From the NCBI RefSeq assembly GCF_023055435.1, contig NW_025963890.1:65844001-65908000 (forward strand): a DNA stretch of 64,000 bases. The letters are read 5' to 3'. The DNA comes from Haliotis rufescens. Lineage: Eukaryota. Position 1 is the first letter of the stretch; each line of letters begins with the position of its first letter. The position numbers and the translations under genes are program-made. Positions 1,108 to 43,900 of the stretch are shown piece by piece. The notes under the pieces were generated by a model. That model was not told where the DNA came from. It saw only the letters and a program-made list of their open reading frames with translations, and searched no databases.

Positions 1108-3612
1108 AATCACTGGTTTTCAGAGCTCCATTCATGTGGCCATAATGATATAATAATATCATTTTTATCACTGTTTTTCAGTGCTCCATCCATGTGGTCA
1201 TAATGATATAATAATATCATTTTTATCACTGGTTTTCAGTGCTCCATCCATGTGGTCATAATGATATGATAATATCATTTTTATCACTGTTTTTCAGTGC
1301 TCCATCCATGTAGTTATAGTGATATAATAATAACATTTTTTTCACTGGTTTTCAGTGCTCCATCCATGTAGTTGTAATGATATAATAATATCATTTTTAA
1401 CACTGGTTTTCAGAGCTCCATTCATATAGTTATAATCTTATAATAATGTCATTTTTATCACTGGTTTTCAGTGCTCCATGCATGTAGTTATAATCTTATA
1501 ATAATATCATTTTTATCACTGGTTTTCAGTGCTCCATCCATGTAGTTATAGTGATATAATAATATCATTTTTATCACTGGTTTTCAGTGCTCCATCCATG
1601 TAGTTAAAATGATATAATACTATCATTTTTATCACTGGTTTTCAGTGCTCCATCCATGTAGCTATAATGATATAATAATATCATTTTTATCACTGGTTTT
1701 CAGAGCTCCATTCATATAGTTATAATGACATAATATCATTTTTATCACTGGTTTTCAGAGCTCCATTCATATAGTTATAATGACATAATATCATTTTTAT
1801 CATTGGTTTTCTGTGCTCCACCCATGTAGTTATAATGATATAATAATATCATTTTCATCACTGGTTTGCCAATTACTTCCAACGGAATCTGTTTTGGTAG
1901 ATTGGGTAGACTGGTTTGACGTTGTGAATTTGCACACGCCCATACTTTCCTTAAGGTGAATGATAAGATACACATTTATCTCCATACATCTTTAACAAGG
2001 CTGCACAAGTGGTATCTCTCACTTTATTCAGTACTTTAAGGACACGGGCCTTTTTGTAAAAACGAAATACAATTTAGTACAACACATCTCTTTATTTTTT
2101 TAACAAAAGCAGTTTTAACAATTGCTTATTATCAAAGTTGGATTATTTGTGAAGGGAGGACATATTTTAAAGGTGTGAATTACATTCGAGGAATTGATTT
2201 CGTGGGCGAATTCTTTGAATTGCCGTGCGGGATAAACGTGTTGACGCCCAGATACGATCAAAATGTAGTTTGTCACAACAAAGAATCACCTCTCAAACGA
2301 GTCTATACTCGTTTTTACTGGCGTGTCTTGTCCAGACTCTATTGTTTACAGGTAGCGTTTTTCGGGAGTATTGCTGGCTGTACAGTTTGACAACGAAAAT
2401 ACACTCACTTTTTTTATGTAAAGTGTGTTAGTGGCGGTTGCTACCGTTAGGGCAGGACATACAGACATATATTTTATTTTGGCAGGCTTAACCTTTTCTC
2501 GAACGTCTAGTGTAATCACTGGTTTTCAGAGCTCCATTCATGTGGCCATAATGATATAATAATATCATTTTTATCACTGTTTTTCAGTGCTCCATCCATG
2601 TGGTCATAATGATATAATAATATCATTTTTATCACTGGTTTTCAGTGCTCCATCCATGTGGTCATAATGATATAATAATATCATTTTTATCACTGTTTTT
2701 CAGTGCTCCATCCATGTAGTTATAGTGATATAATAATAACATTTTTTTCACTGGTTTTCAGTGCTCCATCCATGTAGTTATAATGATATAATAATATCAT
2801 TTTTAACACTGCTTTTCAGAGCTCCATTCATATAGTTATAATCTTATAATAATGTCATTTTTGTCACTGGTTTTCAGTGCTCCATGCATGTAGTTATAAT
2901 CTTATAATAATATCATTTTTATCACTGGTTTTCAGTGCTCCATCCATGTAGTTATAGTGATATAATAATATCATTTTTATCACTGGTTTTCAGTGCTCCA
3001 TCCATGTAGTTAAAATGATATAATAATATCATTTTTATCACTGGTTTTCAGTGCTCCATCCATGTAGCTATAATGATATAATAATATCATTTTTATCACT
3101 GGTTTTCAGAGCTCCATTCATATAGTTATAATGACATAATATCATTTTTATCACTGGTTTTCAGAGCTCCATTCATATAGTTATAATGACATAATATCAT
3201 TTTTATCACTGGTTTTCAGAGCTCCATTCATATAGTTATAATGACATAATATCATTTTTATCATTGGTTTTCTGTGCTCCACCCATGTAGTTATAATGAT
3301 ATAATAATATCATTTTCATCACTGGTTTGCCAATTACTTCCAACGGAATATGTTTTGGTAGATTGGGTAGACTGGTTTGACGTTGTGAATTTGCACACGC
3401 CCATACTTTCCTTAAGGTGAATGATAAGATACACATTTATCTCCATACATCTTTAACAAGGCTGCACAAGTGGTATCTCTCACTTTATTCAGTACTTTAA
3501 GGACACGGGCCTTTTTGTAAAAACGAAATAAAATTTAGTACAACACATTTCTTTATTTTTTTAACAAAAGCAGTTTTAACAATTGCTTATTATCAAAGTT
3601 GGATTATTTGTG
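744..3612. repeat. about 1.4-kb near-identical tandem duplication (744-2151 and 2150-3612)
   Basis: Both copies start tgaagggaggacatattttaaagg and end ggattatttgtg, with TG microhomology at the junction. Copy 2 has one extra 55-bp minisatellite unit. Confidence 0.95.
1110..1867. repeat. 58-bp minisatellite, about 13 copies (second array 2516-3328, about 14 copies)
   Basis: Unit tcactggttttcagtgctccatccatgtagttataatgatataataatatcattttta, with a 55-bp deletion variant. Confidence 0.95.
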
Positions 3613-7864: not shown

Positions 7865-7922
7865 TCACTTGCTTTCTTCCTTGGCTTCCTCAGCCATTTC
7901 CTGCCATTTGGATAAGTTTGCT
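7865..7922 (-). CDS. PDE10A: PDE10A-like last coding exon E21 ([18 protein letters not shown])
   Basis: ttccCAG acceptor, phase 2; NL..W matches DNLSQWEK; TGA at 7865-7867. Confidence 0.88.
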
Positions 7923-10900
7923 CTGGGAAGGGAATGTTAAATGTTAGATCTATCATGTAATATTTATAACAAATATTTCGTTCATTCAAAGCAAGATGCA
8001 CCAAATAAGGTTAAGATATATGGATGAAGAACTTATTATTACAATCAGGAGCTACGTCTCAGTGTAGGTTCTAACACTGTTATCAAGCAAATAAGGATAA
8101 GATATATGGATGAAATAGGGGCGGTCGGGTAGCCTGGTGGTTAAAGGGCTCGCTCGTCACGCCGAAGACCCGGGTTCGATTCCCGACATGGGTACAATGT
8201 GTGAAGCCCATTTGTGGTGTCCCCCGCCTTGATATTGCTGGAATATTGCTAAAAGCGGTGTAAAACCATATTCACTCACTCACTCACTCAGGACAAATAA
8301 ATAAAAAAATATAATGATTACATTATTAAATAGGGGCGGTCGGGTAGCCTGGTGGTTAAAGGGCTCGCTCGTCATGCCGAAAACCCGGGTTCGATTCCCG
8401 ACATGGGTACAATGTGTGAAGCCCATTTGTGGTGTCCCCCGCCCTGATATTGCTGGAATATTGCTAAAAGCGGTGTAAAACCATATTCACTCACTCACTC
8501 ACTCAGGACAAATAAGTGTCAAATAAAAAAAATAAATATAATGATTACATTATTATTAGCAAACTATTGCTACAGTTTTTTTTAAAAACCCAAGAGTCTC
8601 ACCTTATTCCTTCGACCATTGGTGTAGTCGCAGGAAGAATCTGGGCCAGCAACTCATAACAGGGCAGACATATGCCAACAATGAAGCCCACCTAGAAGTA
8701 AAAGGTCATGTACTCAGATTAGATCTGGATATGATGTAAGAGTATGTTAATTCAAAATGTCAGAGCCAGAGAATAATCAGTCTCAATTTTCTGCAGAAAC
8801 AGATTCCATAGGGCATAAAAGGCAAAATATTGATGAAAATTATAAGAATGGGTCACTGAAAGAAATGATGACACCAGGTGTCTAAAAAAGGGTAAATCAT
8901 GTTCTGTCCTAGTGGTAGCACCAGCCACTCACACAAAAGTCGAACAGAATATATTCTCTCAATATTCAAATCTTGGTGCACTAACTAGCAACAAAGTACC
9001 TCTCATCTGTTTGACTAACACATATCAATAGTCCTCAGGTAGTGTTGCACAACCAAAGAATTTCTTATAAAGCATTATATTTCTGACCCTGGTAGACCAT
9101 CCTCCTTCAACAAGAGTTTAAATACCATGTCACAATAAGGCCAAAATATTGCTGACATGGCCATAAATTTGAACTCAATCTCTTCCTGTCACATTAAGGC
9201 CAAAATATTGCTGACATGGCCATAAATTTGAACTCACTCTCCTCCTGACACACTAATGCTGAAATATTGCTGACATGGCCATAAATTTTAACCCACTCTT
9301 CTCCTGTCAAAATATGGCTGACATATTACTGACATGGCCATAAATTTTAACCCACTCTTCTCCTGCTACACAATATGGCTGAAATATTGCTGTCATGGCT
9401 ACAAATTTGAACTCACCTCCAGCTGTGGTAGTTCATGTTTCTTGTCCCGATCCATCATTGCCATGGGGGTCATGCCCTGTTCCTTCTCCTCATCTCCCTA
9501 CAAGGTCAAGGTCAATGTTACTATATTCAAAGACCAGGACACTCTGCCTCACCTGCATAAGTGTTACTAATAATAATTTCTGATAACATTTTAAGATATT
9601 TCATCACTTGAAAAATATGAGGAGTGAATGTAATAACTATTAGTTTCTGTAATAGAATGTACAACACTTTTCTTTATATTAAGTTATCTGAGACACAAAT
9701 AATTAAATGACATTAACCAATACAGAATCTTACAATAACTGTTACTAGAAAGTTTATACTAGTTATTCAAGTGTAAGCATATGTTTTAGGCATTAAATTG
9801 TTCATTTATACAATGAATATCTACCTACATATCCAGCATTTATCCAGGACAACTTGGAAAATGTTCTGTGACAGTATTAACACATAAATATGGTCCTACT
9901 GTAGGAATGATGACAAAGAGGACACCCAGAAGATGAAAGAGAGATAGAGAGAAATTATTAGAAAACATCAAAGAAAGAAATCCAAGAAAATAGAAGGCAA
10001 TAACTGGTCAGAAGTGACCATATTCAAACAAGATACCATATTAAACAATTCCCCTTGACTAAATGACTAGATTGAAGGATGGTGGATCTCTGCTTGCACT
10101 GAAAATTGGATGTGATGATTCATTGAACTATTGATGCATTGCATTGTCTCATTGATGCATTCTCTATGGGCCGATGACAATTTAACTATGACAAGTTGTA
10201 ATATTAATATTAAAGATACCAATAGATGAACAAAATAATTACTTTAATATCATTCATTCTTCTACAAAATACACATTGTTTTAAGAGCCGTGTAGGTATC
10301 TATTCAGAATTCATTCACAACTTTACATTAAATATTTAGCTACTTCTGTAACAACTTCTAGTACATTCTACATGATTGTATGGAATCTACATTGTGCCAA
10401 CTGTTGCAGTACTATCACAGCAATATTTGTAAGTATATTACAAAATATACAATGTCCCCAAAGGTTAGCCATACTGAAAATAATGGATAAATAATGAATA
10501 TATTTTTGGAATTAGAAAAGTGTTTGAATCACATGCAAATGCCGAAGCCTACCCAACCCCATACCGAATGCTCTCAAACTTTCTCATCAGAAACATGCAT
10601 CATGAACCATGTTGACTCGGCCAACCTCTCACAATGCAGTAGAACTTTGAACAGAAACTCCAACTACTCTAGCAACATTAATAACAAAGTTACGAGCCCT
10701 TCCTGTTTAATAGCATTACTTCCACTTCGTGAAAACACATCTCCCATCGCCATTGCAGTACCATGTTGAAACAGAAACTCCCATGAATCTAGCTACCTTA
10801 ATAACAAGTTACAAGCGCTTGTACAGGTCATTGATGAGGATATGACCTTCAAACTGACCTCAAAATTTGAACACAGCCATGAAATATGACAAGTATTGAG

Positions 10901-13900
10901 TTAATTATTGGGAGTCAATGATAAGTCATTGGAAAATGCTTTGATTTCCCATGAATTAATCTGAAACATCATGAAATTTGAACAATGTTCCATAATTTGA
11001 CATATGTGACCTTGACCGTACAGGGGTGACCCAAGACCAAACTAGAGTTTCATCAAATTCCATAACAAAATTAAGGTTATCACCTACATAATCTTTTGAC
11101 TCCTATTTTGTAGGAACATTTGTAACATATTCTCCAAGGGTATTGTTGTTTCTCATGGGAGTACAGGACTGTCCCCAGTAGGCCAAGTTGTCATGTGAGT
11201 GCACCACCTTGCCCATTAGGGGCCATTAGATCTCCTCAGTAAGTCTGTTTCTCATGGGAGCATACGATGTCCTCAGTAAGTCTGTTTCACAAGGGAGCGT
11301 AAGACCTCCTCAGTAAGTCTGTTTCTCATGGATGAGTAAGACCTCCTCAGTAAGTCTGTTTCTCATGGGAGAGTAAGACCTCATTAGTAAGTCTGTTTCT
11401 GAAGGGAGAGTAAGACCTCCTCAGTAAGTCTGTTTCACAAGGGAGCGTAAGACCTCCTCAGTAAGTCTGTTTCCGAAGGAAGTGTAAGACCTTCTCAGTA
11501 AGTCTGTTTCTGAAGGGAGAGTAGGACCTCCTCAGTAAGTCTGTTTCACAAGGGAGCGTAAGACCTCCTCAGTAAGTCTGTTTCACAAGGGAGCGTAAGA
11601 CCTCCTCAGTAAGTCTGTTTCCGAAGGAAGTGTACGACCTTCTCAGTAAGTCTGTTTCTGAAGGGAGAGTAAGACCTCCTCAGTAAGTCTGTTTCACAAG
11701 GGAGCGTAAGACCTCCTCAGTAAGTCTGTTTCTGAAGGAAGTGTAAGACCTCCTCAGTAAGTGTGTTTCTCATGGATGAGTAAGACCTCCTCAGTAAGTC
11801 TGTTTCTCATGGGAGAGTAAGACCTCATTAGTAAGTCTGTTTTCTCATGGGAGCGTAAGACCTCAGTAAGTCTGTTTGTGAAGGGAGAGTAAGAACTCCT
11901 CAGTAAGTCTGTTTCTCAAGGGAGCGTAAGACCTCCACAGTAAGTCTGTTTCACAAGGGAGTGTAAGACCTCCTCAGTAAGTCTGTTTCTGAAGGGAGCG
12001 TAAGACCTCCTCAGTAAGTCTGTTTCTCAAGGGAGAGTAAGACCTCCTCAGTAAGTCTTTTTCTCATGGAAGAGTAAGACCTCCTCAGTAAGTCTGTTTC
12101 TCATGGGAGAGTAAGACCTTATTAGTAAGTCTGTTTCTCATGGGAGCGTAAGACCTCCTCAGTAAGTCTGTTTCTCAAGGGAGAGTAAGACCTCCTCAGT
12201 AAGTCTGTTTCTGAAGGGAGCGTAAGACCTCCTCAGTAAGTCTGTTTCTCAAGGGAGAGTAAGACCTCCTCAGTAAGTCTGTTTCACAAGGGAGCGTAAG
12301 ACCTCCTCAGTAAGTCTGTTTCTCAAGGGAGCGTAAGAACTCCTCAGTAAGTCTGTTTCTCAAGGGAAAGTAAGACCTCCTCAGTAAGTCTGTTTCACAA
12401 GGGAGCGTAAGACCTCCTCAGTAAGTCTGTTTCTCATGGGAGTTCAGGACCCCCCTAGAAAGTTTGTTTATGATGGGAGTGATGTCTGGAATGGAGAGTG
12501 CGAGTCACATGGGCTGTTAGGATGTTAGTGCTGGTTTAGTAGAACTAATATATCGACTAATTCCAGTATAAGGATTCCTACCTGCTGCCAAAACTCTTCC
12601 ATAATGACATAAACGAGGTTAAGCTGCGTGTCCCAGGGCTTATACATGGCACAAAGGTCACATGCGGTCATGGAAACAGTCATTAGCATATGTCTGCAGA
12701 TTGAGAGAGATGTCCACATAATCACACTAGCCACAAAGTAAGCACTAAAATAACAGACTTGTCTCTACATACCTTACTCTGTACTGATTCAGTGACATAC
12801 AACCTTACTCCAAGGCCTTGTTTCCACCAGTAATACAAATCAAAAGGTTTCCAGATAAATTTGCTGGAAAACATAGGCATAATTATACCTACCTAACAGC
12901 AATTTTATCATTTTATTTTTGAAGCATTTTAATCATTTTCATAAAATGTGAAGAGTATGTAGTGACAAGTCTGAGTGTTAACAATAGCATATCTGAAAAA
13001 AAAGTTGAATTAAGGCTTTGCACCATACTTATTCCAATAGAAAAGAGGCATTATAAAACAATCATCAACAGGTAGGTGTACACTGCATTCACCTATCAAC
13101 AGGATATACATTGTACTAATATATGCATAGCAGTTGTGTAGTGTTAATTTTCAGTAATTCCAGAAATATAGAAAGGGTCCTACTCCATAAATGACTTTGA
13201 GGCACTGTGTAGTGAGCGAGTATGGTTTTACATCGCTTTTAGCAATATTCCAGCAATATCATGGCGTGACGAGTGAACGCTTTAACAAGTAGGCTACCCA
13301 ACCGGCCCGAAGCACTGTGTAGAGGAAATGCCACAATATTGCTGTTTTTCCGATATAAGCTGAGCGTTCATTGGTCTGATCAAATCTGCCAATGAACTCG
13401 CTGCTGTATGTATTCATTGGTGATGTCAGAACATAGTGTACACAAACCCTTGAAATAATGATGATTGCATAAATATCTCATTAAGATCATAATTATGTTA
13501 GCAAAGAAATATTTAAAAATCATTGATTCATTTTTCATATTTTTTACAAAATTATTTTCATTGGAATAAATCTGATGTCCCAGACACAGTACAATCCTCC
13601 ATTGCTTACAACTAAGTCAGACAGTTTTATTTCATCTACAGAAGAACTCACAATAACAGGCAAACACAGGTGATGAAAAATAATTGGCAAAACCTCATGA
13701 ATGTCATTGAAGCAAACCCCAGAAAAAGATTGGGATTCATCCAAAGAACATTAAACACTTCTAAAAGTAATGAAGTAAAATAAACACTAATAGGTGGGTC
13801 AAAATATGTTGGAAAGAAAATTTAGAAAATAAAATTAACATTAAATAAACATAAAAATACACGTGTGGATACACGTACTTAAAGAAAAATGGTGTGCATA

Positions 13901-16900
13901 TGCCATCATCAAGTTCATAAATATTTTGAAATGTTGATTTTCAATGTAATTAGAAAAAGTCATAAAAACACTACCCAAAGAAGAAATATATAAATAACTA
14001 GCAAATCCAGAAATGCAGTGATAAAAGAATCAAAACAAAGTGCACAATACAATAAACTAAAGCAAAAACTCATGCACAAATACTCCTTATAACAGTTTTT
14101 ACAGGACTGCCGGTAAGCTATGCTAATGTATCTGCCATGCATACATAGGCCGATTACATTCAGCTGAAACAGGCAAGACAGCCTCACACTCTGTAGAAGT
14201 CACCTGTGCATAAAACTCCTCATAAATGACCTTGACCGTTTCCGCCTGCACGTCCCATGGCTTTGTCATTGCACAAAGGTCACACGATGTCATGGCAATG
14301 TCACGTAACACCCGCCTAGCATGTCAGGGAAAATTGAAAATTATAATTGAACAGATGTCTTTGAATGTCATTAACAACAAGTGACTCTGGAAAACGAATA
14401 CCTTTGTCGTATTAAATTGTTTTTCTTAAATGTGAAATTTATATAACATACTGCTTTCTGATTGAATCATATTCCAGTCAAATGACCATGAAAGTGACAT
14501 TCACAAGCATCTGATTGACCTATTTTGACTTTCATATGCTCATTAAGAGGTACGATTCCTCAAATGAAAGCCACTGGGCTACTGCAACATTCCAGCCGAA
14601 ACTCCAGGGAACTAACTGATGCAATTAACTGCAGAAACACTGTGTATATTGTTAAGAGATTGTATCCTTGACATAAGCGTCTTTGAAAAAGGTGAAGAAG
14701 AAATGATTTATGATCACATATTCTGTAATGAAACTTCTGCACCATGATCTAACCTACAGTGAACGAAATGAGTGAGTAAGTGAGTGAGTTCGGTTTTGAT
14801 GCCGCTTTGAACAGTATTCCAGTTATATCATGGCATATCAGCTAAATGTACAAGGAAAGCCCAAAGTAATGCAGGTCTCAGAGGTTTCCCACTTTGGAGA
14901 AACCCACAATCTTGTTTATGGTGCTGACATACCTAGAAACATAATTGGGGCAAACCAGGAATCGAACCCATAATCATGAGAACAACAGACATCATTGTTT
15001 ATAATTCTAAGAATACTACCTCTATTACATCCTTGCCATAAATCCTGTATTTCGGCTGCAATCACTGAAAACTAATCTTTAGAATTTTCAACAGAACACT
15101 GTCAACCACACATAACTAGTTGTCAAGACAATAGGACCGCCCATCGTCTAGCTCTCTGGCTTGTCAAGGCAGGAAAACCTCACCTCTTTCCCAAAGGCTT
15201 ATCATCGTAGAGACAGAAGATTGGGGAGGAGGGTGGGAGTACTTCTGAACTAATAGAGGTAGTTGCCTTAGAATTATAAACAATGATGTCTATTGTTCAT
15301 ATAATTCTTGCGAATCCTCTTCCTCTATTACAACCAATGAAGTTCAGGAATGGAATAGGTCTTCAGCAACCCATGCTTGCTTGGCGACTAACGGTATCGG
15401 GGGGCCAGGCTCAATGACTTGGTTTGTGCATGTCATCGTATTCCAATTGCGTGGATCGATGCTCATAATATCAATCACTGGATTGTCTGGTCCAGACTCA
15501 ATTATTGAAAGACTGCAATCTTGTAGCTGGAATATTGCTGAGTGCAGCATTAAACAACAAACAACCAAACAACGCTCTATCACATCATTGCCAGAATATA
15601 CCAGAGAGATAGGCGGGTTCTGGCTCTGGTGTGCTCCCAGTGTAGCGGATAGTGGTATAATATTCTTGTGATTTCATCCCCTAATAGTTGTTTCCAATCC
15701 TGAAGGTGAAAAACCAACTATCAAATCACTTCATGTGCAAAACACAAATATGTAGTATCTTCACTAGAACTACCAACTATTTGTTATTATGCAATCATAG
15801 ATGTTCTAAACCTATCTCTCATACATATTATCTTTTCTAATTTTGTGACGTCACTTTCGGTCTATTATACTTCCGGGTGTGACGTCACTTCCAGGTATTG
15901 TTGCTATATGTTGTTATTTCTGGTTCTGACATTCCTTATTTCCCTTCAAATTGTGATGTCAATTCCGGTTTTAAGTGTTCTTTCTGGTTTTGTGACGCCT
16001 TTTCCGGCTAACTCTGGTCCAGGACGTCACTTCCGGTTATGATGACACTTCATTGTGACGCTTCTCCCGAGAGCATAGAATATTGCCTTAATTTCTAGGC
16101 AGTTTATGTTAAGGTTCTTTTCGGAAGTGTTCCAAAGACCTTGAATCCTGATATTGTCCATATTAGGCTCCTGAAAAGAGACATATACCAACAGAGTGGT
16201 CGTATGGGACGAGATGGTACTGTGAGCAACATCTTCAAGGTCTTTGCTTAATGATACTGCAGGGGGGTAAGACATCAAAGATGTAGCATGGATCTGGCCC
16301 TATGTGTACACTAATAATGTCTGGTGATGGTCTCTGACTTCGTTGGATATACCACCAAACCCAGATAAGTTGGCCAGGAAGATCCTGTTGTAACTGTGAC
16401 CTGTCTTGATTCGGTGCCCCCAAACCGTCTAGGTAGACATGAAGATGGACTAGTTGCAGACGAAACCGTGAGTCTGGTGAATATCCAAGGTACTATAGAT
16501 ATCCCGAATGGAAGAACCTGAAATTCATATCTCCTTCCATTGACGGCAAAACATGGAGATATGCTCATGAACCTCACTGTCTGCCTTTCCCAGAGTTGAA
16601 AGCCACTTCTGTATTGATTCCATCTGGAACTGGCGTGGCGGTGCTAGAAAAGACTTGCTCAGGATCTTGCCTGCTATTATCATTCTCATGTCTGGGGAAT
16701 TCTTCTCTGGTGCAAGAAATGTAAAATCATCTGTGATGTAGCAGGGCATAGAGTCATCCCACAGATGACATCACTGCCATGACAGTTTGCTCAAGGGGTT
16801 AACCTCTTTGGTCATGTGGACAAGGTGTCTAGAAAAACCTCAATGACAATGTTTGCAGTTTATAGCTTGGCTCATTCCAGATGGAATCTTTGGCCTTCTG

Positions 16901-19900
16901 GCAGGATTACAAATAGAGGATAGTGGTGGAAGTAAAGCTTGTACCATTTTGATACAACGTTCAGGATCTAGCCATTGGACTTGATCTGCTTCCAGTTCTA
17001 GGTGCATGACAAGAGATGTCCCCCAAGTTGGCGTTATGTTGACAGTCGGCAGTCTTAAATCGTGGTCCATAGTTAATGCCAGGTCGATAGGATGTAGAGA
17101 TTGTTGAAAAGAATCATTCCTGATGGGTCTTGTTGTGTCTGCTGAAATTTCTTCAAAGGATTCCGGTAGCGTGGTGACGTGTCAGATACTGGTCACAAAC
17201 CAAATCATCCAAATCTTTAAACCTAGCTGAAGGTAGGTCAAATCTTGAGTTTGGAGACTCTCATCCAAAACTTGAGAATCTGGTAGAGGTACAGTCATGT
17301 GTCTGATATTGTTTCTTCTTCAGCGACGTAAAGGGGAGATGATAATCGTGTCTCAGCCTCCATAAATTCTCTGACGCAAGGTCAATGATCTTGTGAGCAT
17401 AGCTTGGCCATTGAAGAGAATGATGTACTCTAAGAGGTGAATGGGGTCTGAGATCCAGTATACTCTGGTATTTGAGGGAAGTCAAATTCCTCCAACTTCG
17501 GATGTATCAAAGGTATTAATGATACAGCTGTCCAATCTGCTCCGAGGTAGAGAAATGAGGATCAAAATCTCCCGACAGAGAATAATCAGATCCATCAAAA
17601 TTATCTTCAACTTCCTCTTAGTCTGTGGGGTCAGATAGAATCTTTGGGGGTGACCTGGCGTATGGCGGCCAGATCAATCAAAGGAACCATGTGATTTTCA
17701 CACGTGTCAAGGTCCGAAAGGGACCACAATGATTTAGGCCCGTGGAGAGTGAGTGAGTGAGTGAGTGAGTGAGTGAGTGAGTGAGTGAGTGAGTGAGTGA
17801 GTGAGTGAGTGAGTATGGTTTTACGCCGCTTTTAGCAATATTCCAGCTATATCACAGTGGGGGACACCAGAAATGGGCTTCACAGATTGTACCCATGCCG
17901 GGAATCGAACCCGGGTCTTCGGAATGTGGAGCGAACGCTTTAACCACTAGGCTACCCGACCCGCCCTGTGGAGTGTGAGACTCTAATCCATATGAAACAG
18001 TTCTCAAACAGTCTGCTTGGTTTCATTGTCTTCTCTACAGTCTTTATCCTGGGTGTTCAGGATAGCCAAATCTGAATGCTTCTGAGATGTCCAAGAGGCT
18101 TGGCTTCAGAAGAACCTCTAGGGTAACCGTGTGGTGATCGTGACGATCTGGTAACGGACGATGACTTGGCGCCTGTCGGGTCTGTGCAGGTACCGTACTG
18201 AGACTGTGACGACCAGGTAAGGGCTGGTGGATTGACTCCTGTACTGGAACTGTGCTCTGCAGAGACGGTGTTTGTCTGGTCCATGTGGTAGGTGGATAAT
18301 TGGCTGGTAGATTGGCTTCCCTCGCGACAGTCCTGATTACCGTGCGGTGAACGTGCCAGCTATGTATTCTTGGTGAAATATAGCTGAATGGCATCTAGCT
18401 CTCTGGTCAGTTAGTGACAAGCTGGGCGCTCCCTCAGAAGGTCGTACGGCCATGGTAGTAGACAGGAGATGTTTATCCAGCGGCTGTCCACCTTGCGGCA
18501 TCTTGGCCAGGGACTTCTTGGCTTGATCGCAGGAGCCTTAGGCGTTCCCGATCCTGATCCATCTTGAGTAGCAGTTGAGGGTGAGGAAATAACATCGGCG
18601 ATGGCATCCATATTTAATATTTAATGAAATACCATGACCAATGTTAAGTGACAATAGTGAATGAGTAGAGAAAATTATCAATGACAACAGAACATCTAAT
18701 ATCTGTCTAATAAAAGCTGTGAAAGAAGTATTGGGAAGGCAAAAGTTAACGATCAATATGCATTGTTAAAAAAACAAGAAAAGAAAATGGTCTAATCATC
18801 ACAGTATTTCGTGATTTTATTTCACGTGGCGAGGACAATAGCGATGTCATTTGATTGCGATGTCATGGTAACCAATGATGTCACAAAGGGTTGCAAAGCA
18901 TTGCAATGCAATATCTTTGTAGCGTTATCTCCTACATTATACGCCAATGGAAGCCAGTTTTGCTAATTTCTTTCTTTACCATCACTAAAAAAATATGGAT
19001 TTCCATCAAATTAACTATTTATGAAACAAATTATCCTTCTGGCTTCCATTTGTCCATTGCCATTGCTATAACCTATCATTTGCTCATTGCCCATTGCCAG
19101 TCATTGATAATTTAAGTCCTGGCTTCCAATTGTCCATCGCTATCAACTATTCATTAACTAACTGTCGTGTGTTGGCTTCCATTTGTCCATTGCAAATCTT
19201 CTATCAGCAGCAATGAACTGATGGCTTCCCTTGTTAAGTTCCTCCCTTTGTTATTTCATTACTTTTGTTGTTCTAGCTTACAGGAACATATATATGTCCT
19301 CTGCCTCATAGCATTCATTCACCTGATGAAGGAGCAAGTATACACTCTGAAACGTTGTGTTCCTCATAATAGAGAAGTTAACATCAATAATTTTTCTTCC
19401 TTATGTGTATCACTTCTAAATGCCATTCAAAGACTATTTGTAAAACACTAATGTAAAATCAGCTACTCTTGCAGTAGTTGCCTTACATTGATGATCTTTA
19501 CTCTAGAGTGGACATTTTTATCAGAAAATACATAAAAACATAGCATTAGCACACACAGATTTCATCTAGAGATAGTACATATTTCACAATATTCCACTGT
19601 TAGACTTTGAGGCTAAACAAAACTTTGCTCAAAATAATCTAATGTCAGTGCCAGACATGATCTGAATCAGTCAGTACATACATTACGTAATAAACACATT
19701 TTTTATGTTAAGCAAACAATGGAGAGACTGCACAACAACATATTAAATATCTCAAATAAAGAAGTTAAAAAACAAATTCAAACACAATTCAATGCACATG
19801 AGAATGACCTAAACATGAATATAGAGACAACTAAGAATATCCTTGTGACTCAAACAATCATTACCAGTATATCATTATGTGCATGAGATTATAAGTTAGT

Positions 19901-22900
19901 GAGTGAGTTTGGGTTAACACCGCTTTTAACAGTATTCCAGTTATATCTCGGCGTGTCAGCTTAATGTGGGAGGAAAGCCCAAAGTGATGCAGTTCTCAGA
20001 CGTTTACCACTTCGATGAAACCAACGAGCACGGGTATGGTGCTGACAAACCTAGAAACATAATCGGAGTGAACCGGGATTTGAACCCACAATCATTGGTA
20101 TCTGGCATGCCCAAGGGACGCAACTCTGCACAGCGAATCGCAGCGCCTTAGACGACTGGGCCACCCGTGACCCAATGAGATTAAAAGAAAGAATTATTGA
20201 AAAACATTGAATCATAATCTTTGTCCATGGTTTGCTGTCCAAATCATTGGCTATCACACATGACTGTGTGTGAGTTTACCTGTGTTCCTGTATGTCCCAT
20301 GAAAAGTCATTCCTGTCTGCAATGTCCTTTAACTTGGCTCTGTTCCCAAAGAACAGTGCCAGGTCTGTAGCCAGAATGCAGTGCCGGATGTCACCCAGAA
20401 CCTGCAATGACAGTAGCTATATACAGGAACAATGGCTGCTATCTGGATTCAAGGAGTGTTGATTATGCCTACCTCAAGTATCAATACATACATTCTAAAT
20501 TCTCCATGTTCAACATGGCCCAGTTAAATTTCTAAATCCACCATGTGCAACGCAGCCCAGCTCAATTACTAAATTCTCCATGTTTCATGTTGTCCCGCTA
20601 AATTACAAAATCCTCCATGCTCAACCCATCCTAGCTCAATTACAAAATCCTCCATGTTCAACTCAGCCCAACTAAATTACTAAATTCTCCATATTCCACG
20701 CGGCCCAGCTCAATTACAAAATCCTCCATGTTCCACGTGACAAAGCTACCTTACTAAATTCTTTATGTTCCATACAGCCCAGCGGAATTATTAAAATCTA
20801 CTTTCTTGTAAGATATAGAGTCTATTCCCCATCTGTAGTGCATAGATATACATGTAACTTCTCAGAGACCACCTTACCTTTTTGTATTCTTCTGAACACA
20901 GGTGCTTGAAGATATTGTGACCTTCATGCTGCAACAATCAAATTCCAGTATTACAATCACATGCAAACTGACACCACTGAAACATTACCATACAGGCTGA
21001 TATATATGTATCTGGTCTACAACATAACATAAGATATTACTGTGTTTTATCTATATATTTGATCTGTACCTCAGAGCCAGGTCTACATCATAAGTTGTCC
21101 ACCGGTCTCGAGGGGTATATGGTGTGATGTATGAATGAATGTTGGTAATCCCGACAAGCGATCCCTCAGGGAATAATATGAGTTGTCGCAGGATCATGAG
21201 GGGTACATGGGGTTTTATGCATCCTGGATTAGATTTTATACCATGAACCAAAGAGTGGTATAAAATCTAATGAGGGACGCATAAAACACAGTGATCCCCT
21301 TGTGATCCTGCTACAACAAATTCATCTTACCAACATGCTTTAATGTGACATTGTTATAGAATTAACACACATTCAAAATTGATAGAAAACAGCGATTTGA
21401 TTGAGCTGAGGTTAACTTGTGCAATGTCATGTGACTTATGCGTGATAAGCAAGTTACCTAGATGTTTCCGTATATATTTCCCGGGCTACAAGGAAAATTA
21501 TTTCCCTCTCCATAACCAATCAAAACCTGTGTGCGAAATATGCATGTCGGAAAGCACACGTAAAACCTCCAATCATCTCTCTCTCTCAACAAATGTTATA
21601 TTGTGGATAACATCTTGTTAGTAAAGTACAGATTCTAGTACTTTTTTGGGTTGAGTCCCATCCGGGATTCGAACCCACACTGCCAGAGTGATGCACCTAA
21701 TCGACAGCACACAAAGTCAGCAATCTAACCCACTCAGCCACACTAAGATAATGAAGCCTGCACCATGTGACCCACGACATGCTACTGTGGGGCCCAGCAT
21801 GCTACCTGCAGTATCGCGACTGTCTGGTTGAAGTGATGATGTTCCATGGTGGAGGTGGAGTAGATGGCTGCCAAGGGGGAGGCACTCTTCACCATGAAGG
21901 CGTTGGTCTTCCCGCGATGATCCAAGTCATGACACAGGCATGCCACAAACAGTGCCAGGCTCTGAAACAGATGAACAACATTGGAATTCAACTTCCATGT
22001 GATCTGACGAGGACATTAGTTGACACCGGAGTAAAACAAATGTACCACGAATTACCCCATTTAGATGTTTCAGAATACTTGTGCCTTCACTGATATTAAT
22101 ACATGAAACTGGGGACATTTGGCACACCATGGCACAGTGTGATCACCAAAAGTCATACTGAGGTTAGCTCACTGGTGTCCTGCCCTACTAGCATTACAGT
22201 TATTATACACAGCCTATTAGGGGAATATGTAACTGACTGACCTCAGTTGTTTGATAGGCATTTCTTAGAAGTTGATGGAGGGCAAAGTAGACACAATTTA
22301 TTGTCAAGTGATCCCTCGGGGAATATTATATGTTATTGCAGGATCATGAGGGGTACATGGGGTTTTATGCATCCTGGATTAGGTTTTATACCATGATCCG
22401 GAGAGTGGTATAAAATCTAACGAGGGACGCATAAAACCCAGTAATCCCCTTGTGATCCTGCTACAACAAATTTATCTTACCAACATACTTTAATGTGACA
22501 TTGTTATAGAATTAACACACATTCAAAATTGATAGAAAACAGCGGTTCGATTGAGCTGAGGTTATCTTGTGCAATGTCACGTGACTTATGCGTGATAAGT
22601 TACCTAGATGTTTCCATATTGATCCGTATGGATAACAACTTCTTTATTTTACTGCAAAGGCAACGTTTCGGTATAGACCCTTATAAGTTGTCAAAAAGGA
22701 GTAAACAAGAGTCATGACTGACCTCAAGTGGAGTAAACAGTAGTCATGACAGACCTCAAGTGGAGTAAACAGGAGTCATGACTGACCTCAAGTGGAGTAA
22801 ACAGGTGCCATGACTGACTCAAGTGGAGTTAACAGGAGCCATGACTGACCTCAAGTGGAGTAAACAGGAGACATGACTGACCTCAAGTGGAGTAAACAGG

Positions 22901-25900
22901 AGCCATGACTGACATCTAGTGGAGTAAACAGGAGCCATGACTGACCTCTAGTGGAGTAAACAGGAGTCATGACTGACCTCTAGTGGAGTAAACAGGAGCC
23001 ATGACTGACCTCTAGTGGAGTAAACAGGAGCCATGACTAACCTCTAGTGGAGTAAACAGGAGCCATGACTGACCTCAAGTGGAGTAAACAGGAGCCATGA
23101 CTGACCTCAAGTGGAGTAAACAGGAGCCATGACTGACCTCAAGTGGAGTAAACAGGAGCCATGACTGACCTCAAGTGGAGTAAACAGGAGCCATGACTGA
23201 CCTCTAGTGGAGTAAACAGGAGCCATGACTGACCTCAAGTGGAGTAAACAGGAGCCATGAGTAACCTCTAGTGGAGTAAACAGGAGCCATGACTGACATC
23301 TAGTGGAGTAAACAGGAGCCATGAGTAACCTCTAGTGGAGTAAACAGGAGCCATGACTGACATCTAGTGGAGTAAACAGGAGCCATGACTGACCTCTAGT
23401 GGAGTAAACAGGAGCCATGACTGACCTCAAGTGGAGTAAACAGGAGCCATGACTAACCTCTAGTGGAGTAAACAGGAGCCATGACTGACCTCAAGTGGAG
23501 TAAACAGGAGCCATGACTGACCTCAAGTGGAGTAAACAGGAGCCATGACTGACCTCAAGTGGAGTAAACAGGAGTCATGACTGACCTCAAGTGGAGTGAA
23601 CTGGTGGGCTGCCCGCTTGATGACTGTGTACATGGAGTGCGCCACTGAAAACGCATGAACCCAGTTGTGGTAGGGCACATTGCGGTAGTTCTTCCGCACA
23701 GTCAGCGTGAACCGAATCAAAGCATCCGTGTCAAACCTGAAAATTTGAATTATTTGATAAATGTCCATTTCGTAATAATTTACGACAAACTTACATACCA
23801 ACAATATATTAATGGATCTGACACTTACAGCGCAAGAACCAAATACGTTTCCCTGTTCTGTTTCTTATTTTATATTATATTTTTCAGAATTATGTAGACT
23901 CCAACAACACTGAGCTACCAGTAGACATAAATATTGGCAGGTGCACTCTTTCTGTAAGACACACATCGATCAATGGAATCAGTATTGTTGACATATACAT
24001 TATGATCAAATACAAAGATTGATTTAAGATACTAGGATTGGTTTTAAGAAAGTGCTACAATGCTGTGACCTTGTTTCCTCAGTATTGCATTTTGAGTGCA
24101 ATCTTAAATTCACAAGTCCAGAAAATATGTTTTCCTGGGGCAACTGAAGTGACTTCACGTCTTGCAAGAAACAGAACTAAGAGCATGTGATGTAAAATAA
24201 CTTGTGGTGAAAAGTGAGAAATGAGAATCAACAACTATTTGGAACCAAATACAACAGAGCAACTTTCAGTGGTCAAGTTTATCAATCTCCAAAATTGTAT
24301 TTAATGTCGGTCCACACTCAAGTAGGTTTACAATTATTTTCTTCTTCTTAAGAACAATTATTCTGATTGAAAGAATGTTTTCATATAAGGCATTTTTAAT
24401 ACTTGGTGAATAAATGTGACAACCTTCAATTTCACAAATGTGGAATCAAATTTAAAAAACCAAACCAAAAAAACATGTCTTTCCTTCCTGTCAAAAAGTT
24501 GTTAACTTCTTTCAGCAATCAAATAAAAACTTCAATAGAGGTCAACATAAGTAAGGAAGGATATTTCAATACACTTTTCATGTTTTGTTTTCAATTTAAT
24601 TTAAGTTTCTTAAGGTGAATACCATCAAAGATCTGAAAGCCAACTGATACAGATGAGGTCTACTGATGACCATTTCATATTCTGTGTGTAAGAGGGGGGA
24701 ATGGAGGGTTGGGGTCAGGATGGATTTGTTTTACAAAAACAATTTGTTCAATGAAAAATACTAGAAAAATAATCTTGCCTCAGATTTTGCTGGGTGTCAA
24801 GACTAACAAAGAAGTTGGTTAAAAAAAAAAAAAATGAAAAGCAAAAGATTGTATGTCATGAAAATGTCTGGGATGTCTCCATAATCCCCCAACCCTCCAA
24901 GAATATTAAATGGTCAGTCTCCAAATATCTCTTATACTAAGGAGATAGTTCTAGCTCTAACAACATTAGTTCTATAAGCTTTAAGCCAATACAGGACATA
25001 CCGTCATCACAACTCTATCAACTCAGTATTTACTTAAAGGAATTTTTTCACATCTTTTATCTTTTCAGATTTATAGTTTCGTTTGCTAAAAACAAGATAG
25101 CAAAGAAGGATTCACAAAAGGCTGAAATACTTTTGAATGGAATTTGTAAAACTTAGCTTGATAGTGTACATGATGAGTGTATATATATATATATATACTA
25201 CTCAAAAGAAGTTAAGGATCACCCGATTCTTTCATATTGGTAATGTTAATCTGTCATGGCATGAGAGATTAACTATTGTAATATGAAAGAATCAGGTGAT
25301 CCTTAATTTCTTTAGAGTAGTATATATATATGCGTGTGTGTGTGAACTTGCAGTGCATCAGACTTCTACAAATACAGAATCATTGTAAATAACGTGATAC
25401 TTCATTTCAATGATGTAAAAAATATCAGTTACATGTGAACAGATTTTGAAATTACAAATACTGAATGAAAATAACGGTTGAAGTAAACCTGTAAATCCTT
25501 ACATACAGTAGTCATGTCAATCAATGTATACTGAGCAAAAATAATTAAGAATCATGAATATTTTTTTGGATATTTTTTTGGAATATTGTGTGCTCTGTCT
25601 CCACTACGAAGCAAATATCACAAAAAATATTCATGACCCCTTAATGTTTTTATTCAGTATCTGTTCGTTTTGCAAACAATTCACTTCCATGGTTCCATGA
25701 ATACTTGAATCCATGACACTTCAGGGAAGTATATAGGCTTGCGAATATTCTGTACTATATCCATAGCAAATGTCTGTTTAGGTTTAATCGTAGGAAAAGA
25801 TTTGTTTGTTTGCCACACTCAGCAATATTCCATCTATATGACAGCAGTCTGTAGGTAATCAAGTCTGAACCAGACAGTCCAGTGATTGATATCATGAGCA

Positions 25901-34900: not shown

Positions 34901-37900
34901 TTGAGACATTTTACAGGCATACATCCTGAATCAGACACAACTGATTTGGGGGATTTCTGCCTCCATTTTAACTTCGCAGTATAAGCAGACACATGAGAAA
35001 ACATTACATGGGGACATTTGATGGATGTTGGAACCTGATTTAGTTCCTCTGTGTTCAGTAATGCAGCTAATATTATGATAATTTCAGTAAAGATCCAACC
35101 TTATTTCTTTCTGTGGTACATTTTCTTCACACTTTCCAGTATCAAATATTCGGGAGAAGAGTTCCTTGGTGCGGGAGTCGAGCATAAATAATGATGCCCG
35201 ATCGGCATGCACAAGAGTTTTTGCAAAATTCTGCCAGAGGAAAAAGTTACCAAAACTTAAGTTATTTGACTTGAAATTGATGGAAATAACTAAATTCAAA
35301 AGTAGGCTAGAGACAACTGAACATAATCAGAGGAGGTAGCAAATAAGTTAAGGGCAAGACAACAAGCACACTAGACTATGGTTACCACAAACACTGGTGC
35401 AAACTCTTGTACAGGGAGTAGGCCTAGGGTTTCTGAAGATACAGTACAAGCTATGGATTGACTAAGGACAGCGCCATCTGGCTTGACTAAGGACAGCGCC
35501 ATCTGGCTTGACTAAGGACAGCGCCATCTACCACAATCATCCACACGCCAAGGCTACAAGCATGTTCAGTATCTAAAGCATGGGTTACTGGGTTTGTCAA
35601 ACATAAATGCACACAAATTAAGCTGATATCATTTGCACAAATGATATAATGAGTATGAAATATTTATATGGAAAAATATCTCAATGTAGTTTCAGAATCA
35701 AGAGCATGAGGATATACTTTAGTCATTTGATCAAATTCATTTTAATTTTTGAAAGGCAGAAAAGATTTGTGCCAATGAATCCTGTCAGTGGAGCTCTGGG
35801 ACTTTAATGTCTTTGTTGAGATTCAGTCGAAGCACCAAATGGTAGAACTTGGCTTACATATAAACAAGATAACAGCACAAATGTAAGGACAAAATGGATT
35901 ATTATCACTACAAAAAGACAATCAAATACTGATCACAAAAGAGGCTTTTTAAAAAAACAACATATGTCAAAGCAGCTGTAGGAACAAATGTTAACAGCAA
36001 TATGACATACAGCTGTAAGTTTTGGAAGTTAGGTCAGACCGTTTAAAAGTCATTGTTTTACAATCAACCTCAGTACTTTGATACATGTTACTTTTGTAAT
36101 ATGGAGGGCATATTTATCTGTAAATCAAGAAAGAAACTGTCCTTCATTTCAAAAGATGGAATCGTACTACAAGATGTTGAAGTGCCAGATGTCCACTGAT
36201 GCACTGGGCTGACCCAGTCACTCTAACCTGATTTCTTTCTGCTGACTACTTTCAGGTGAAGGAACACCCATAGTGCTCCCGACGTCAAAAATACGTGCAA
36301 ATAACTCCTGCCGGTGGTGATCCAATAGGAACAGTGAAGCTCGATCCGCATTCACCAACTTTTGTGCAAAATTCTGTCACAACGGAACAAAATTGGGAAT
36401 ACTACAGGGTAAGAAAATAAAGCAAACCAACAAGGGGTGATTGATAAGTTCTCAGCCTCACATAGAAAGAATTATTCACAATCCATAGTCCTCTTCTACA
36501 TTGATACACTTTTGCCCATGATGTTGGAGTTTCACAGACGTCCTTTGGCTGTCCAAAAAGCTATAGAGTCAAAATGGGTTCCGGATAGAGCTTTCTTCAT
36601 GTTTGGGAACAGATTGAAGTCTGATGGAGCCAGATCAGGAGAATGAGTTGGGTGCTGAAGGAGTTTAAAGCAACACTCGTGAATTGTACCCACTGGCTTG
36701 TGCACTTGCCCATTGTCCTGGGGGAAGAGCACACGATTTCTCAGTTTTCCATGTTTCTTAGTCTCAATTTCATCCCATAATTGCCTCATAAGTCCAGCAT
36801 AATATGCTCCATTTATTGTCTGGCCCTTTGGAAGATCCACCATGAAGACACCTTTGAACACAGGAGGCCATCTTTCCTGGTCATGAGACAGTCTTTGCCT
36901 TCTTTGGTGGTGGTGATGTCAAATCCTGCCACTATTTAGAATCTTGTTAGAACCGAGGGATCATTGATTGTCACAAATCGTTGAAAGAACCTTTCTGGTC
37001 AGCTTCAAACATAGCTAAATCACCACAAGACATGGTGTGAATGGTTGCATATTTGATCAGTTGACGCAAGTTATTCTAGATATACCCCTCTGACATCATG
37101 TCGCTTAGACATTTGTCCACAAGAAACGATTTCCCCATTGTTCAAATCCTTCTATGTGAGGCTCAGAGCTTATCAGTCAACCCTTGTATAAGCATGAGTG
37201 TCTAACATCCTAGAGTTGTGATTGTACCACAAAATAATCATTTGATTCAATAAGCCTTGGTAATTGAGGAAATGGGACTAAGGACATGAATATCATGTTC
37301 AGAGTTTGCTGAATTGATTTCTGTCAGCTGTATCTCAGGCTTAATGTCTTGCAGCTGTACTGCTATGACGCTGTAGCTCACCTGCTGACATTTACTTAAA
37401 GTCATGTGAACATCTTTAATGATAAACAAGTCACATACGCTAAATATTTAAAAACGAATGTGCTATTATTAACGTTTCATAAAAAGTAACAAATTTAACC
37501 TGCTCATCAAGTTTCAATCCCAATGGCAGCAGAAATACCAAAATTTGAATCATCGTCAAAGTAAAGATGCAATCAAAGTGAAACAATATTTCAAATGACT
37601 GACTGCATGGTACTCAGATGTCAAATCTAATTTACTTTACTTCAATGATGGTAACTGAATAGTCAAAGGGTTTTTAATATAACTGCCATTTTGAATACTT
37701 TATGAAAAACACCTGATCCAATTCAGGTACTATCCTTTGAATGAGTATTGTTTCACACTCTCCTTAGAAGTGTTCCAGCAATATCATGGTGGAGAAAAAC
37801 CAGAAAGGAGCTACACACATCTAACCATGTGGGACATCGAGCCCAGGCATTTGGTGTGATCAGTGATTGCATTAAACCACTAGGTTATCTTATCGCCCAT

Positions 37901-40900: not shown

Positions 40901-43900
40901 TGTTGGACTTGTGTTTGGAGCTTTAGTGGGAACAGTGAGTATATGGCATTGTTGAAGTTATGTTTGGAGACTTAGTGTTGACAGACAGTGAGTATATGCT
41001 GTTGTTGGACTTGTGTTTGGAGGTTTAGTGGGAACAGTGAGTGTATGGCATTGTTGAACTTATGTTTGGAGGTTTAGTGTGGACAGACAGTGAGTATATG
41101 CTGTTGTTGGACTTACTTTGTGACTGTTAATAAAAACTCATTGAGTTTTCTTTGTTTTAACATACTGCTATGAACCTGCAAGAAAAAATATATAATTGAT
41201 ACATACATACCAGCAGCAGAAGGAAAAGGCATTCATGGTATTAATTATTAACTGCTGAACAAATGTTTACTTTCGTCATAGGTGTCTTCTAGATAAAGGC
41301 TTTAAATGATCCTTGATGTTAACATTCTTTCATAATAAGTTCATAAAACATATTACCATATTAAATTAAAATGTCCTATGTCATGGTCCTATAGTTGAAT
41401 ACTGTGATATGAAAACAATTCTCGGAAAGGAATACATTACTGTACAATTGTTAGTAAAAATGAAAATCACAAAAAAGATGTTAGAAGCATCTAACAGTAC
41501 AACACAAATAGAGGTCTGTTAGCAAATGAACAGCAAGATACTTAATGCTAAAACAGAGATGACCAGTCATTACCATTATGGTCTAAAGCATTACCTGCCG
41601 TAGCACAATAAGGGGAGATAATCACATGAAGTACACAAAAGCATATCACACAATCACATCTTTGTTTACACAAATAGAAATATTTGTAAAATTTAATAAA
41701 AGAGTTTGCACAACAAACATTTAACAAACCATACTGTAAATTCAAAGTGTACAATACTCTTGTACATTCAAGGTCAATGCGGATCATGTTGCCATAGTTA
41801 CAGGTTTAGTCAACAGAATTTCAAAACAATTTCCTAATCTGAAGTTTGTAAAAACAAACAATGACACACAAGTAGCTTATAAACACAAGTGGCAATAACA
41901 CACAGTGGAATGTTTCGGCAGATAGTCAAGACTGAATATTCTCTGGCACTGTCATTTAATATTTTTCTGAAGACCTTTTCTAAACATATAATCTTAATAA
42001 ACAAAAAAGTGAAAAACTGATTGTTTATACATTAAGTAGGTAAAATAATAATGAGCAAACAATGAATCAGCATTGGCCTCTGGTTGATGTGAATTCACAA
42101 AGACATGCACAGATACAACTACTCTGTTTGGGATACCTCTGTATAAAACAAAACCAGTCCACCCCAAGCTAGTATTCTCTCAGCACCCTGTAGGAACAGA
42201 CACAGGTGAGGCTATAATGTCAGGCACAGACAAGAAGGAGGGGGAGGAGGAGGCAGAGGGACTTATCACAAACTCCCAGAGGCGGAGCCTAGGATTTTGA
42301 AAAAGGGTTTGGGCATGTAATACCAAAGTCAACGAAATGGCTTGGCCGAGGGTGCAGTTAACATGTAAAGTGTCTGGAAAAAGAGGGTGGAGGTGCGCAG
42401 CCCCTGCACCGCAACAATGCCAGTTAACTACAAACTCCATCATGGACAAAATTCAACATTAACACTGGGTGTCATTTCCAAATTTCCGAAACATTGTCTG
42501 ACATTTCAAAAAAATATTTGTAACATTAACTTTTACTTCAATATGTAACTGAATTCATCATGCTGATATGGGTTGTTGTGATCTGAATGAAATCTGGAAT
42601 TTAGCATTCAGCAGCAGCTGATGACGTCAGTCAAGGAAATGTGTTTAGTGGTTTAAAATTCAAAAAGGCACACTAGCAACATTACAGCCATATTGTGTGG
42701 AATTGGTTTAAACAGACTGTACATATCTTTGGTGAAGTAAGGATTGGGGCCTACGGACTACAGATCATAATCAGGGAGAATCTAGGATTTGGAACCCGCC
42801 ACCAACAAATCCTGGTATAACTAAGGGAGGCAACTATTTATCCCCCTTAACAGGAGAAAATATTTTCTGATGATTGTGGTTAAAATTACCAACAGGTATT
42901 TGTCCTATTCCAAATTCAATTTTATAATGACATTACTAATTAGTATATAATAATTAATAAGCACACATAATACACACACCTTCAAAATTATAAAATATTT
43001 TATGGTCACTAAACCGTGTTCTGACTGTGTCAAACTAGGAACACTGTCCTCTACAGAACAAGTCTAGCTAGAGAGTAGATAAAATGATAAGCTTGTCAGG
43101 CCTCTACCTGTGACACTACGGTAAGATATATAAAAATCTGTTAAAGCTGAGGGGTGGAAGGGGAACAGGGTGGCGTTAGCAGGCTGCAAGTGTTAGTCAG
43201 GAGTCTACATTTTCAGACCATCCCTTAGCCGATATGCTTCAGACCCAGCAACAACAAATACCTTAGATCCTTCAAACATATTTGTGACTATTATTTGCAC
43301 CTTTTGTTTTAGTAATGAAAGACTACATGAATAAATCATAAAAATATTGCAAAATAGATTCAAAAGTTCTGACTGATTTCTTTTATGATCACAAAATCTG
43401 TATAACTAAGTTTCTGTGATTATTATCCATATAGCTAAATTTTTTATGAAATATGACTTGAGTTGAAGATTTAGCCATCCAATCTCATAAACTTCTCTTT
43501 TACATCAGATTCCCATCCTCTCTCCATCAACTCCGGACAAACCAGTAAATAAGAGGTCATTACAGGTGAAGTTTCTAGTCTGGCAAGCAGATCGGAAGCT
43601 ACAAAACTCTCAGTACAAATAAGCAAACCATTTGGAATGTGAACAAATGAACATAATTGGGCAGTTCTGGATGGAGAAAATAATGACCCAATGTTGTTGA
43701 TATTTTCATCCTATAGTTTCAGTCTTGTATTTTTAATCAGCTTCATTAGAAGTTCTTTTTGCTGTGGTTTCATTTCTCTTTTACCCAACTTTGATCAAAT
43801 TGCAAATTGCTGTCCCACGATACCAAAGTGTTTGAAAACCCTGGCCTGTAGGACCTGTGTCACCAAATTTTCACATGAGAATTTTGCTCAACACCTCCAC

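Follow-up and report, generated by a model that had tools for sequence, protein, structure and literature searches.

The window analysed here, a 64,000-nucleotide stretch of Haliotis rufescens contig NW_025963890.1, carries on its minus strand the nine catalytic exons of a phosphodiesterase (PDE). These are the exon that opens the catalytic domain and supplies the first two His ligands (23586..23736), the exon carrying the HD metal motif (21806..21961), a further catalytic-domain exon (20878..20928), the exon preceding E18 (20280..20401), two alternative versions of E18 (E18a, 14204..14315, and E18b, 12582..12693), E19 (9417..9497), E20 (8603..8691), and the final coding exon E21, which includes the stop codon (7865..7922). 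All nine have AG/GT ends, with the exception that E21 terminates in the stop. Both versions of E18 encode the metal-binding Asp, with Tyr (E18a) or Met (E18b) in the column of PDE10A Tyr693. Spliced with either version, the catalytic exons encode a 272-residue stretch that matches the ends of two H. rufescens RefSeq isoforms (P0010 and P0127) exactly. The Pfam PDEase_I profile matches at 265-269 bits (cut-off 24.8) over positions 1-237 of 238, and Pfam GAF matches two stretches, so that tandem GAF domains lie ahead of the catalytic domain.

Several repeats accompany these exons. Two minisatellites (22698-23601, 32 bp x 28; 9128-9420, 59 bp x 4.9) start at exon ends and carry copies of the splice donor into the intron; the second, a feature of the abalone intron, begins at the E19 donor and overlaps the last codon of that exon. 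A unit of roughly 1.4 kb that includes a 58-bp minisatellite occurs twice in tandem (~946-1990 and ~2352-3590), either through recent duplication or as an artefact of assembly. The intron between E17 and E18a contains broken reading frames (~15950-17200, minus strand) with a putative resemblance to a decayed retroelement polymerase.

E19 is 81 nucleotides long, follows a ttgtag acceptor, and runs from the M-loop to the start of the Gln helix. Its final codon, read on the reverse complement of the window sequence, is GAG (Glu; 9417..9419), followed directly by the donor gtgagt, and the Glu is residue 794 in both RefSeq isoforms. The purine-binding Gln that it replaces has been called a hallmark of class I PDEs (PMC7720076). 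The preceding codon (9420..9422) encodes Leu, which exon comparison places in the column of PDE10A Gly725, and E20 begins GTG GGC TTC, with the clamp Phe three residues past the Glu. Reading through the E19 donor meets a stop after five codons; therefore, no in-frame downstream donor restores Gln. To our knowledge, no type of RNA editing makes the G-to-C change that would be needed to turn this codon back to Gln.

The initial annotation had assigned the Glu to the invariant-Gln column, three residues ahead of the clamp Phe, and alignments to known enzymes agree. The H. rubra orthologue aligns with solved PDE5A without gaps over the stretch between the MDR motif and the clamp Phe, with the Glu on Q817 (a number counted along the structure's chain). 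Alignment with a vertebrate PDE10A-type protein, recognised by a motif common to PDE10A PDB chains, is likewise gapless and places the Glu on the Gln column (Q726 of PDE10A2). A slip in register would have made the Gln of the nearby Pro-Gln-Leu the pocket residue; that position instead pairs with PDE10A Q724 and holds Gln in just 15 of the 25 Glu-type exons, and the gapless alignments together with this variability rule the slip out.

Contigs from sequencing runs are consistent with the codon as assembled. One contig from a DNA run, possibly the same data as the assembly, spans 9336-9750 with no differing letter. In three runs from three organisms, presumed to be RNA, one contig covers E21, continues at equal depth over E20, and extends 172 letters, which equals E20, E19, and two further letters; a SINE dominates the presumed-RNA alignment over the locus, and no difference at the Glu codon is among the differences listed. 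From the extent of this contig and the RefSeq models, we infer that E19 is joined to E20 in abalone transcripts.

In a catalytic-domain tree of 37 rows, the gene falls in a pde-5 clade (support 96/97) together with sequences from nematodes, amphioxus, urchin, cnidarians, and Trichoplax. The sister group of this clade (100/98), itself supported at 95/93, contains vertebrate PDE10A and an abalone paralogue, L002 (G000:C179:2672000-2679500). The tree (100/98) and fold matches set the combined PDE10A/pde-5 group apart from PDE2, 5, 6, and 11. In an AlphaFold model of the H. rubra protein (mean pLDDT 74.5), used for fold and secondary structure only, all 50 listed fold matches are PDE10A structures. 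The gene had been called PDE10; this is right for the broad group, but within it the tree places the gene with nematode pde-5 and the paralogue on C179 with PDE10A, although an alternative tree grouping the abalone gene with PDE10A is statistically compatible with the data (p-AU 0.16). On the sequence evidence, the gene is a GAF-GAF phosphodiesterase of the nematode pde-5/PDE10 group. The tree further suggests two old animal PDE10 subfamilies, in which case nematode pde-5 may not be the orthologue of PDE10A.

The C179 paralogue has matching exon boundaries, Gln at the end of E19, and Tyr in the Tyr693 column, with a single E18 and a single E19 in the stretch examined. A third abalone GAF-PDE (L001 1233-3956, on G000:C598) is intronless, encodes 907 aa with a GAF-GAF arrangement, groups on the PDE5/6/11 side, and also keeps the Gln. 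Therefore, abalone still has Gln enzymes.

We examined how widely the Glu is shared. Among the best 150 representatives at 50% identity, 142 were readable at the column, and these carry Gln (136), Glu (4), or another residue (2), so the abalone Glu is not a chance state. The four Glu representatives are two mollusc orthologues, a protein that groups with bivalves, and a cockroach model that is divergent, partial, and also without the last metal Asp. Matches to the HD exon (n = 120, 88 readable) divide into 50 with Glu and 38 with Gln, and a further 47 proteins gave Gln in 42/42 readable cases. In a tally by genus of hand-picked named proteins, which leaves out unnamed and truncated ones, Glu is present in 13/13 gastropod genera and in 16/16 bivalve genera, three of which have Gln too. 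Lingula has both residues; among annelids, one genus has Glu and two have Gln. Gln alone was found in two cephalopod genera (three models), two nemerteans, one bryozoan, two flukes, 2/3 rotifers (one unread), 9/10 non-bilaterians (one unread), 17 ecdysozoans, and 13 deuterostomes. All 16 Haliotis models have Glu, and three Haliotis species besides H. rufescens carry it. The residue is thus not specific to abalone but clade-wide in gastropods and bivalves. In both Babylonia and Nucella, pde-5 is represented by two divergent models (P0033/P0051 and P0035/P0048), all of them with Glu.

The Leu goes with the Glu: among 55 selected exons, it precedes Glu in 25/25 and Gln in 0/30. The proposal that Leu replaced the Gly of PDE10 holds for the Leu itself but not for Gly as the ancestral state, since only 2 of the 30 Gln-type exons have Gly in the Gly725 column (vertebrate PDE10A and a fluke). 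Two places ahead of the Glu, the residue takes six states, whereas the Glu is constant across gastropod and bivalve genera.

Isoform models from other lophotrochozoans show that E19 can exist in two forms. In RefSeq/GenBank models of Crassostrea virginica, X1 and X3 are identical outside E19, which ends Ser-Gln in X1 and Leu-Glu in X3, and X1 and X3 of Magallana angulata likewise differ solely in E19, again Ser-Gln or Leu-Glu. Because these oyster isoforms differ in E19 only, the same protein accepts either residue without changes elsewhere. Both types are also present in M. gigas, and a Pinctada model contains both exons in tandem, with the Gln copy leading. Two Lingula models are distinguished by E18 and E19, by single-residue differences at two places, and by one 9-residue insert. 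In Lineus, the isoform models contain two distinct E19 copies, both with Gln at the end. The Gln and Glu copies of E19 are unlike at about half of their residues, including many M-loop positions.

No second E19 is present in the window: a six-frame profile scan returned E18a, E18b, and one E19, with z of 12-14 at E19 and at most 5.4 anywhere else in the window. Searching the abalone genome with the Gln-type exon, with the best candidates scored, gave E19 and one paralogue exon only; a decayed remnant is possible. Both searches bear out the earlier statement that no alternative, Gln-bearing E19 exists here. The picture of a single Glu exon was correct as to the Glu and incomplete as to its history, since this exon is one of an E19 pair kept in oysters, Pinctada, and Lingula. 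The exon comparisons mark E19 as an old pair of mutually exclusive exons, and the abalone exon is its Glu-type copy, the only one retained and the sole copy in the genome.

That both Lineus copies end in Gln suggests that the duplication preceded the Glu. E19 would have been duplicated early in lophotrochozoans, with both copies initially Gln as in Lineus; one copy would then have turned to Leu-Glu, and most snails and bivalves would afterwards have lost the Gln copy. An E19 exon tree built without the two trait columns required four changes but is statistically compatible with a single origin (p-AU 0.22), and its 25 columns are too few for counting origins of Glu. In this tree, the Lamellibrachia exon lies among ancestral-type exons, on a long branch.

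As cooperation between the Glu and the E18 swap had been suggested, we compared the two exons across species. Glu co-occurs with both types of E18, and with Tyr, Phe, Ile, or Met in the Tyr693 column (Phe and Ile in bivalves), and therefore needs neither type. In PDE10A, Tyr693 bonds to Gln726 (PMC12571622), and cooperation between Glu and E18 seems possible on sequence comparison without being required. The gene has further exon pairs. Another mutually exclusive pair encodes the end of GAF-A (~44425-44481 and ~42134-42190, minus strand); RefSeq X1 and X2 differ solely at this pair, a swap that M. gigas shares. GAF-B likewise has a duplicated first exon, whose two copies (~36227-36374 and ~35100-35230, minus strand) serve as alternatives. 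The abalone gene thus has three exon pairs (GAF-A, GAF-B, and E18), and E19 is a fourth in oysters.

The metal and catalytic columns (H, H, HD, D), the clamp Phe, and the pocket Trp are all intact, and the Glu-form enzyme is therefore likely to be active. Lacking the invariant Gln, it is, as predicted from the gene, a variant of the class I PDEs and not a canonical member. This natural Glu variant of a known enzyme class is real and seemingly new, its sequences standing uncommented in RefSeq. In literature searches, with subscription journals mostly outside their coverage, neither a natural Glu at the invariant-Gln site nor the E19 pair turned up.

The closest guide to what the Glu might do is the engineered PDE9A mutant Q453E (Hou et al. 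2011, PMC3069055). In that study, KM increased from 0.113 to 2.8 uM for cGMP (25-fold) and from 501 to 1233 uM for cAMP (2.5-fold), kcat was about halved, and the cGMP/cAMP selectivity ratio fell from 337 to 29. The mutant still preferred cGMP, and its efficiency was reduced on both substrates. Its authors attributed the loss with cGMP to the missing amide-O6 bond and doubted that this residue is the main selector (PMC3069055). By analogy with these kinetics, the mollusc Glu form could well bind cGMP more weakly and be shifted towards cAMP, and we put the chances of this at about even. The altered nucleotide selectivity proposed in the initial annotation is the most likely meaning of the Glu, with the PDE9 data favouring a shift of about 12-fold and not a flip.

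Mechanistically, the Glu carboxylate would retain one hydrogen-bond acceptor for a purine N-H, would lose the amide donor, and would face guanine O6. In the PDE10 binding mode, Glu would cost cGMP its one hydrogen bond to this residue, and cAMP would keep one, in line with the direction seen in PDE9. The KM for cGMP would rise about 10-fold more than that for cAMP, and species with both E19 exons would tune nucleotide preference through splicing.

Three points temper this reading. PDE9 is a different family from the abalone enzyme. Selection may act on other M-loop residues that differ between the E19 copies. Finally, a protonated Glu, or one hydrogen-bonded by the conserved Gln in the PDE5 Q775 column, could mimic Gln. 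A candidate parallel, in which the abalone Gln/Glu pair would mirror Glu406/Gln453 of PDE9, was dropped because the partner residues lie in different columns by PDE9 numbering.

An opposite effect on selectivity is conceivable and, in our view, unlikely: both oxygens of the Glu would grip guanine N1-H and N2-H, adenine would be rejected, and cGMP specificity would be sharpened. Recognition of guanine by a carboxylate is common elsewhere, in G proteins, cyclases, and CNG channels, and the Leu, always beside the Glu, could reshape the pocket. Nematode PDE-5, moreover, acts mostly in cGMP pathways according to a 2025 review (PMC12346295), which describes the substrate preference of C. elegans PDE-5 as unmeasured. 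The single crystal and kinetic test that we found points the other way, as the 25-fold loss of cGMP affinity in PDE9 Q453E was accompanied by rotation of the Glu off the ligand carbonyl (PMC3069055).

It is similarly improbable that Glu is simply a tolerated near-equivalent of Gln, protonated or hydrogen-bonded by its neighbours, with the exon pair kept for other M-loop differences, for example in regulation or partner binding. A neutral swap should recur or revert, yet the invariant Gln holds in nearly all of the 142 readable representatives, and the Glu-type exons from 29 mollusc genera all keep Glu. What gives this explanation some weight is the extent to which the E19 copies differ, the retention of two Gln-ending copies in Lineus, and the protonated Glu-Glu contact proposed for PDE9 Q453E (PMC3069055).

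We consider it very improbable that the Glu form is weak or inactive and persists as a scaffold or GAF sensor, or that its substrate is a non-canonical nucleotide, for example cCMP or cUMP. The other abalone GAF-PDEs, with their Gln, could do the usual job, and the efficiency of Q453E was down 50-fold and 5-fold (PMC3069055); however, the same mutant retained about half of its kcat (PMC3069055), the metal ligands and clamp of the abalone enzyme are intact, and the HD exon is 85-100% identical among the named molluscs. An assembly error, repeat-driven conversion, or register slip as the source of the Glu has a negligible chance of being correct: the 59-bp minisatellite does overlap the codon, but Glu in 13/13 gastropod genera rules out repeat conversion, independent assemblies from four Haliotis species and from 29 mollusc genera show the identical Glu, the alignment is gapless, and the DNA contig shows no differences.

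A bolder reading, to which we give somewhat less than even odds, is a genetically encoded 'glutamine switch' in lophotrochozoans, in which one gene would shift its cAMP/cGMP preference by splicing either Gln or Leu-Glu into the purine site, with the E18 pair additionally re-lining the pocket. More than one origin of Leu-Glu is possible (Lamellibrachia), and snails and most bivalves would be committed to Glu, as the first natural class I PDE lineage without the invariant Gln.

The discrimination of cAMP and cGMP, and the role of the invariant Gln in it, have been debated since the 'glutamine switch' was proposed, and engineered mutants mostly lose function. A Gln-to-Glu change kept by selection throughout gastropods and bivalves bears on this debate, and oysters provide a natural matched pair, unlike in one exon of 27-28 residues, that allows a direct test. 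Since many PDE inhibitors hydrogen-bond to the invariant Gln, mollusc enzymes of the pde-5 group may also respond differently to drugs that are applied in mollusc physiology or occur in coastal water. PDE9 Q453E lost more than 1800-fold in affinity for one inhibitor (PMC3069055).

Among known systems, the C. elegans PDE-5 subfamily shares the clade, the GAF-GAF-catalytic layout, and the Gln in the PDE5 Q775 column; in its members from nematodes, arthropods, deuterostomes, and cnidarians the invariant site holds Gln, in contrast to the abalone Glu. Vertebrate PDE10A is the best fold match to the H. rubra model (TM 0.83-0.89 to target, 44-49% identity), belongs to the joint clade (100/98), and aligns without gaps through the pocket. 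It differs in that the abalone gene has Glu for Gln726, Leu for Gly725, Gln for Thr685, and the Tyr of Tyr693 in E18a only. Gly725 has a role in the selectivity pocket of PDE10A (PMC12571622), and with Leu in its place this pocket is absent from the abalone gene. PDE9A Q453E (PDB 3QI3 and 3QI4) has the same substitution in the same column, and the mutant is active (PMC3069055), but it was engineered, in another family, and next to Glu406. The mollusc Glu, in contrast, is a natural residue that is fixed in two classes of molluscs and comes together with Leu, and in oysters it can be chosen through splicing. As in the 'glutamine switch' model, selectivity would be set at this residue; however, that model, which is disputed (PMC3069055), rotates a single amide, whereas in molluscs the residue itself is exchanged by the choice of exon.
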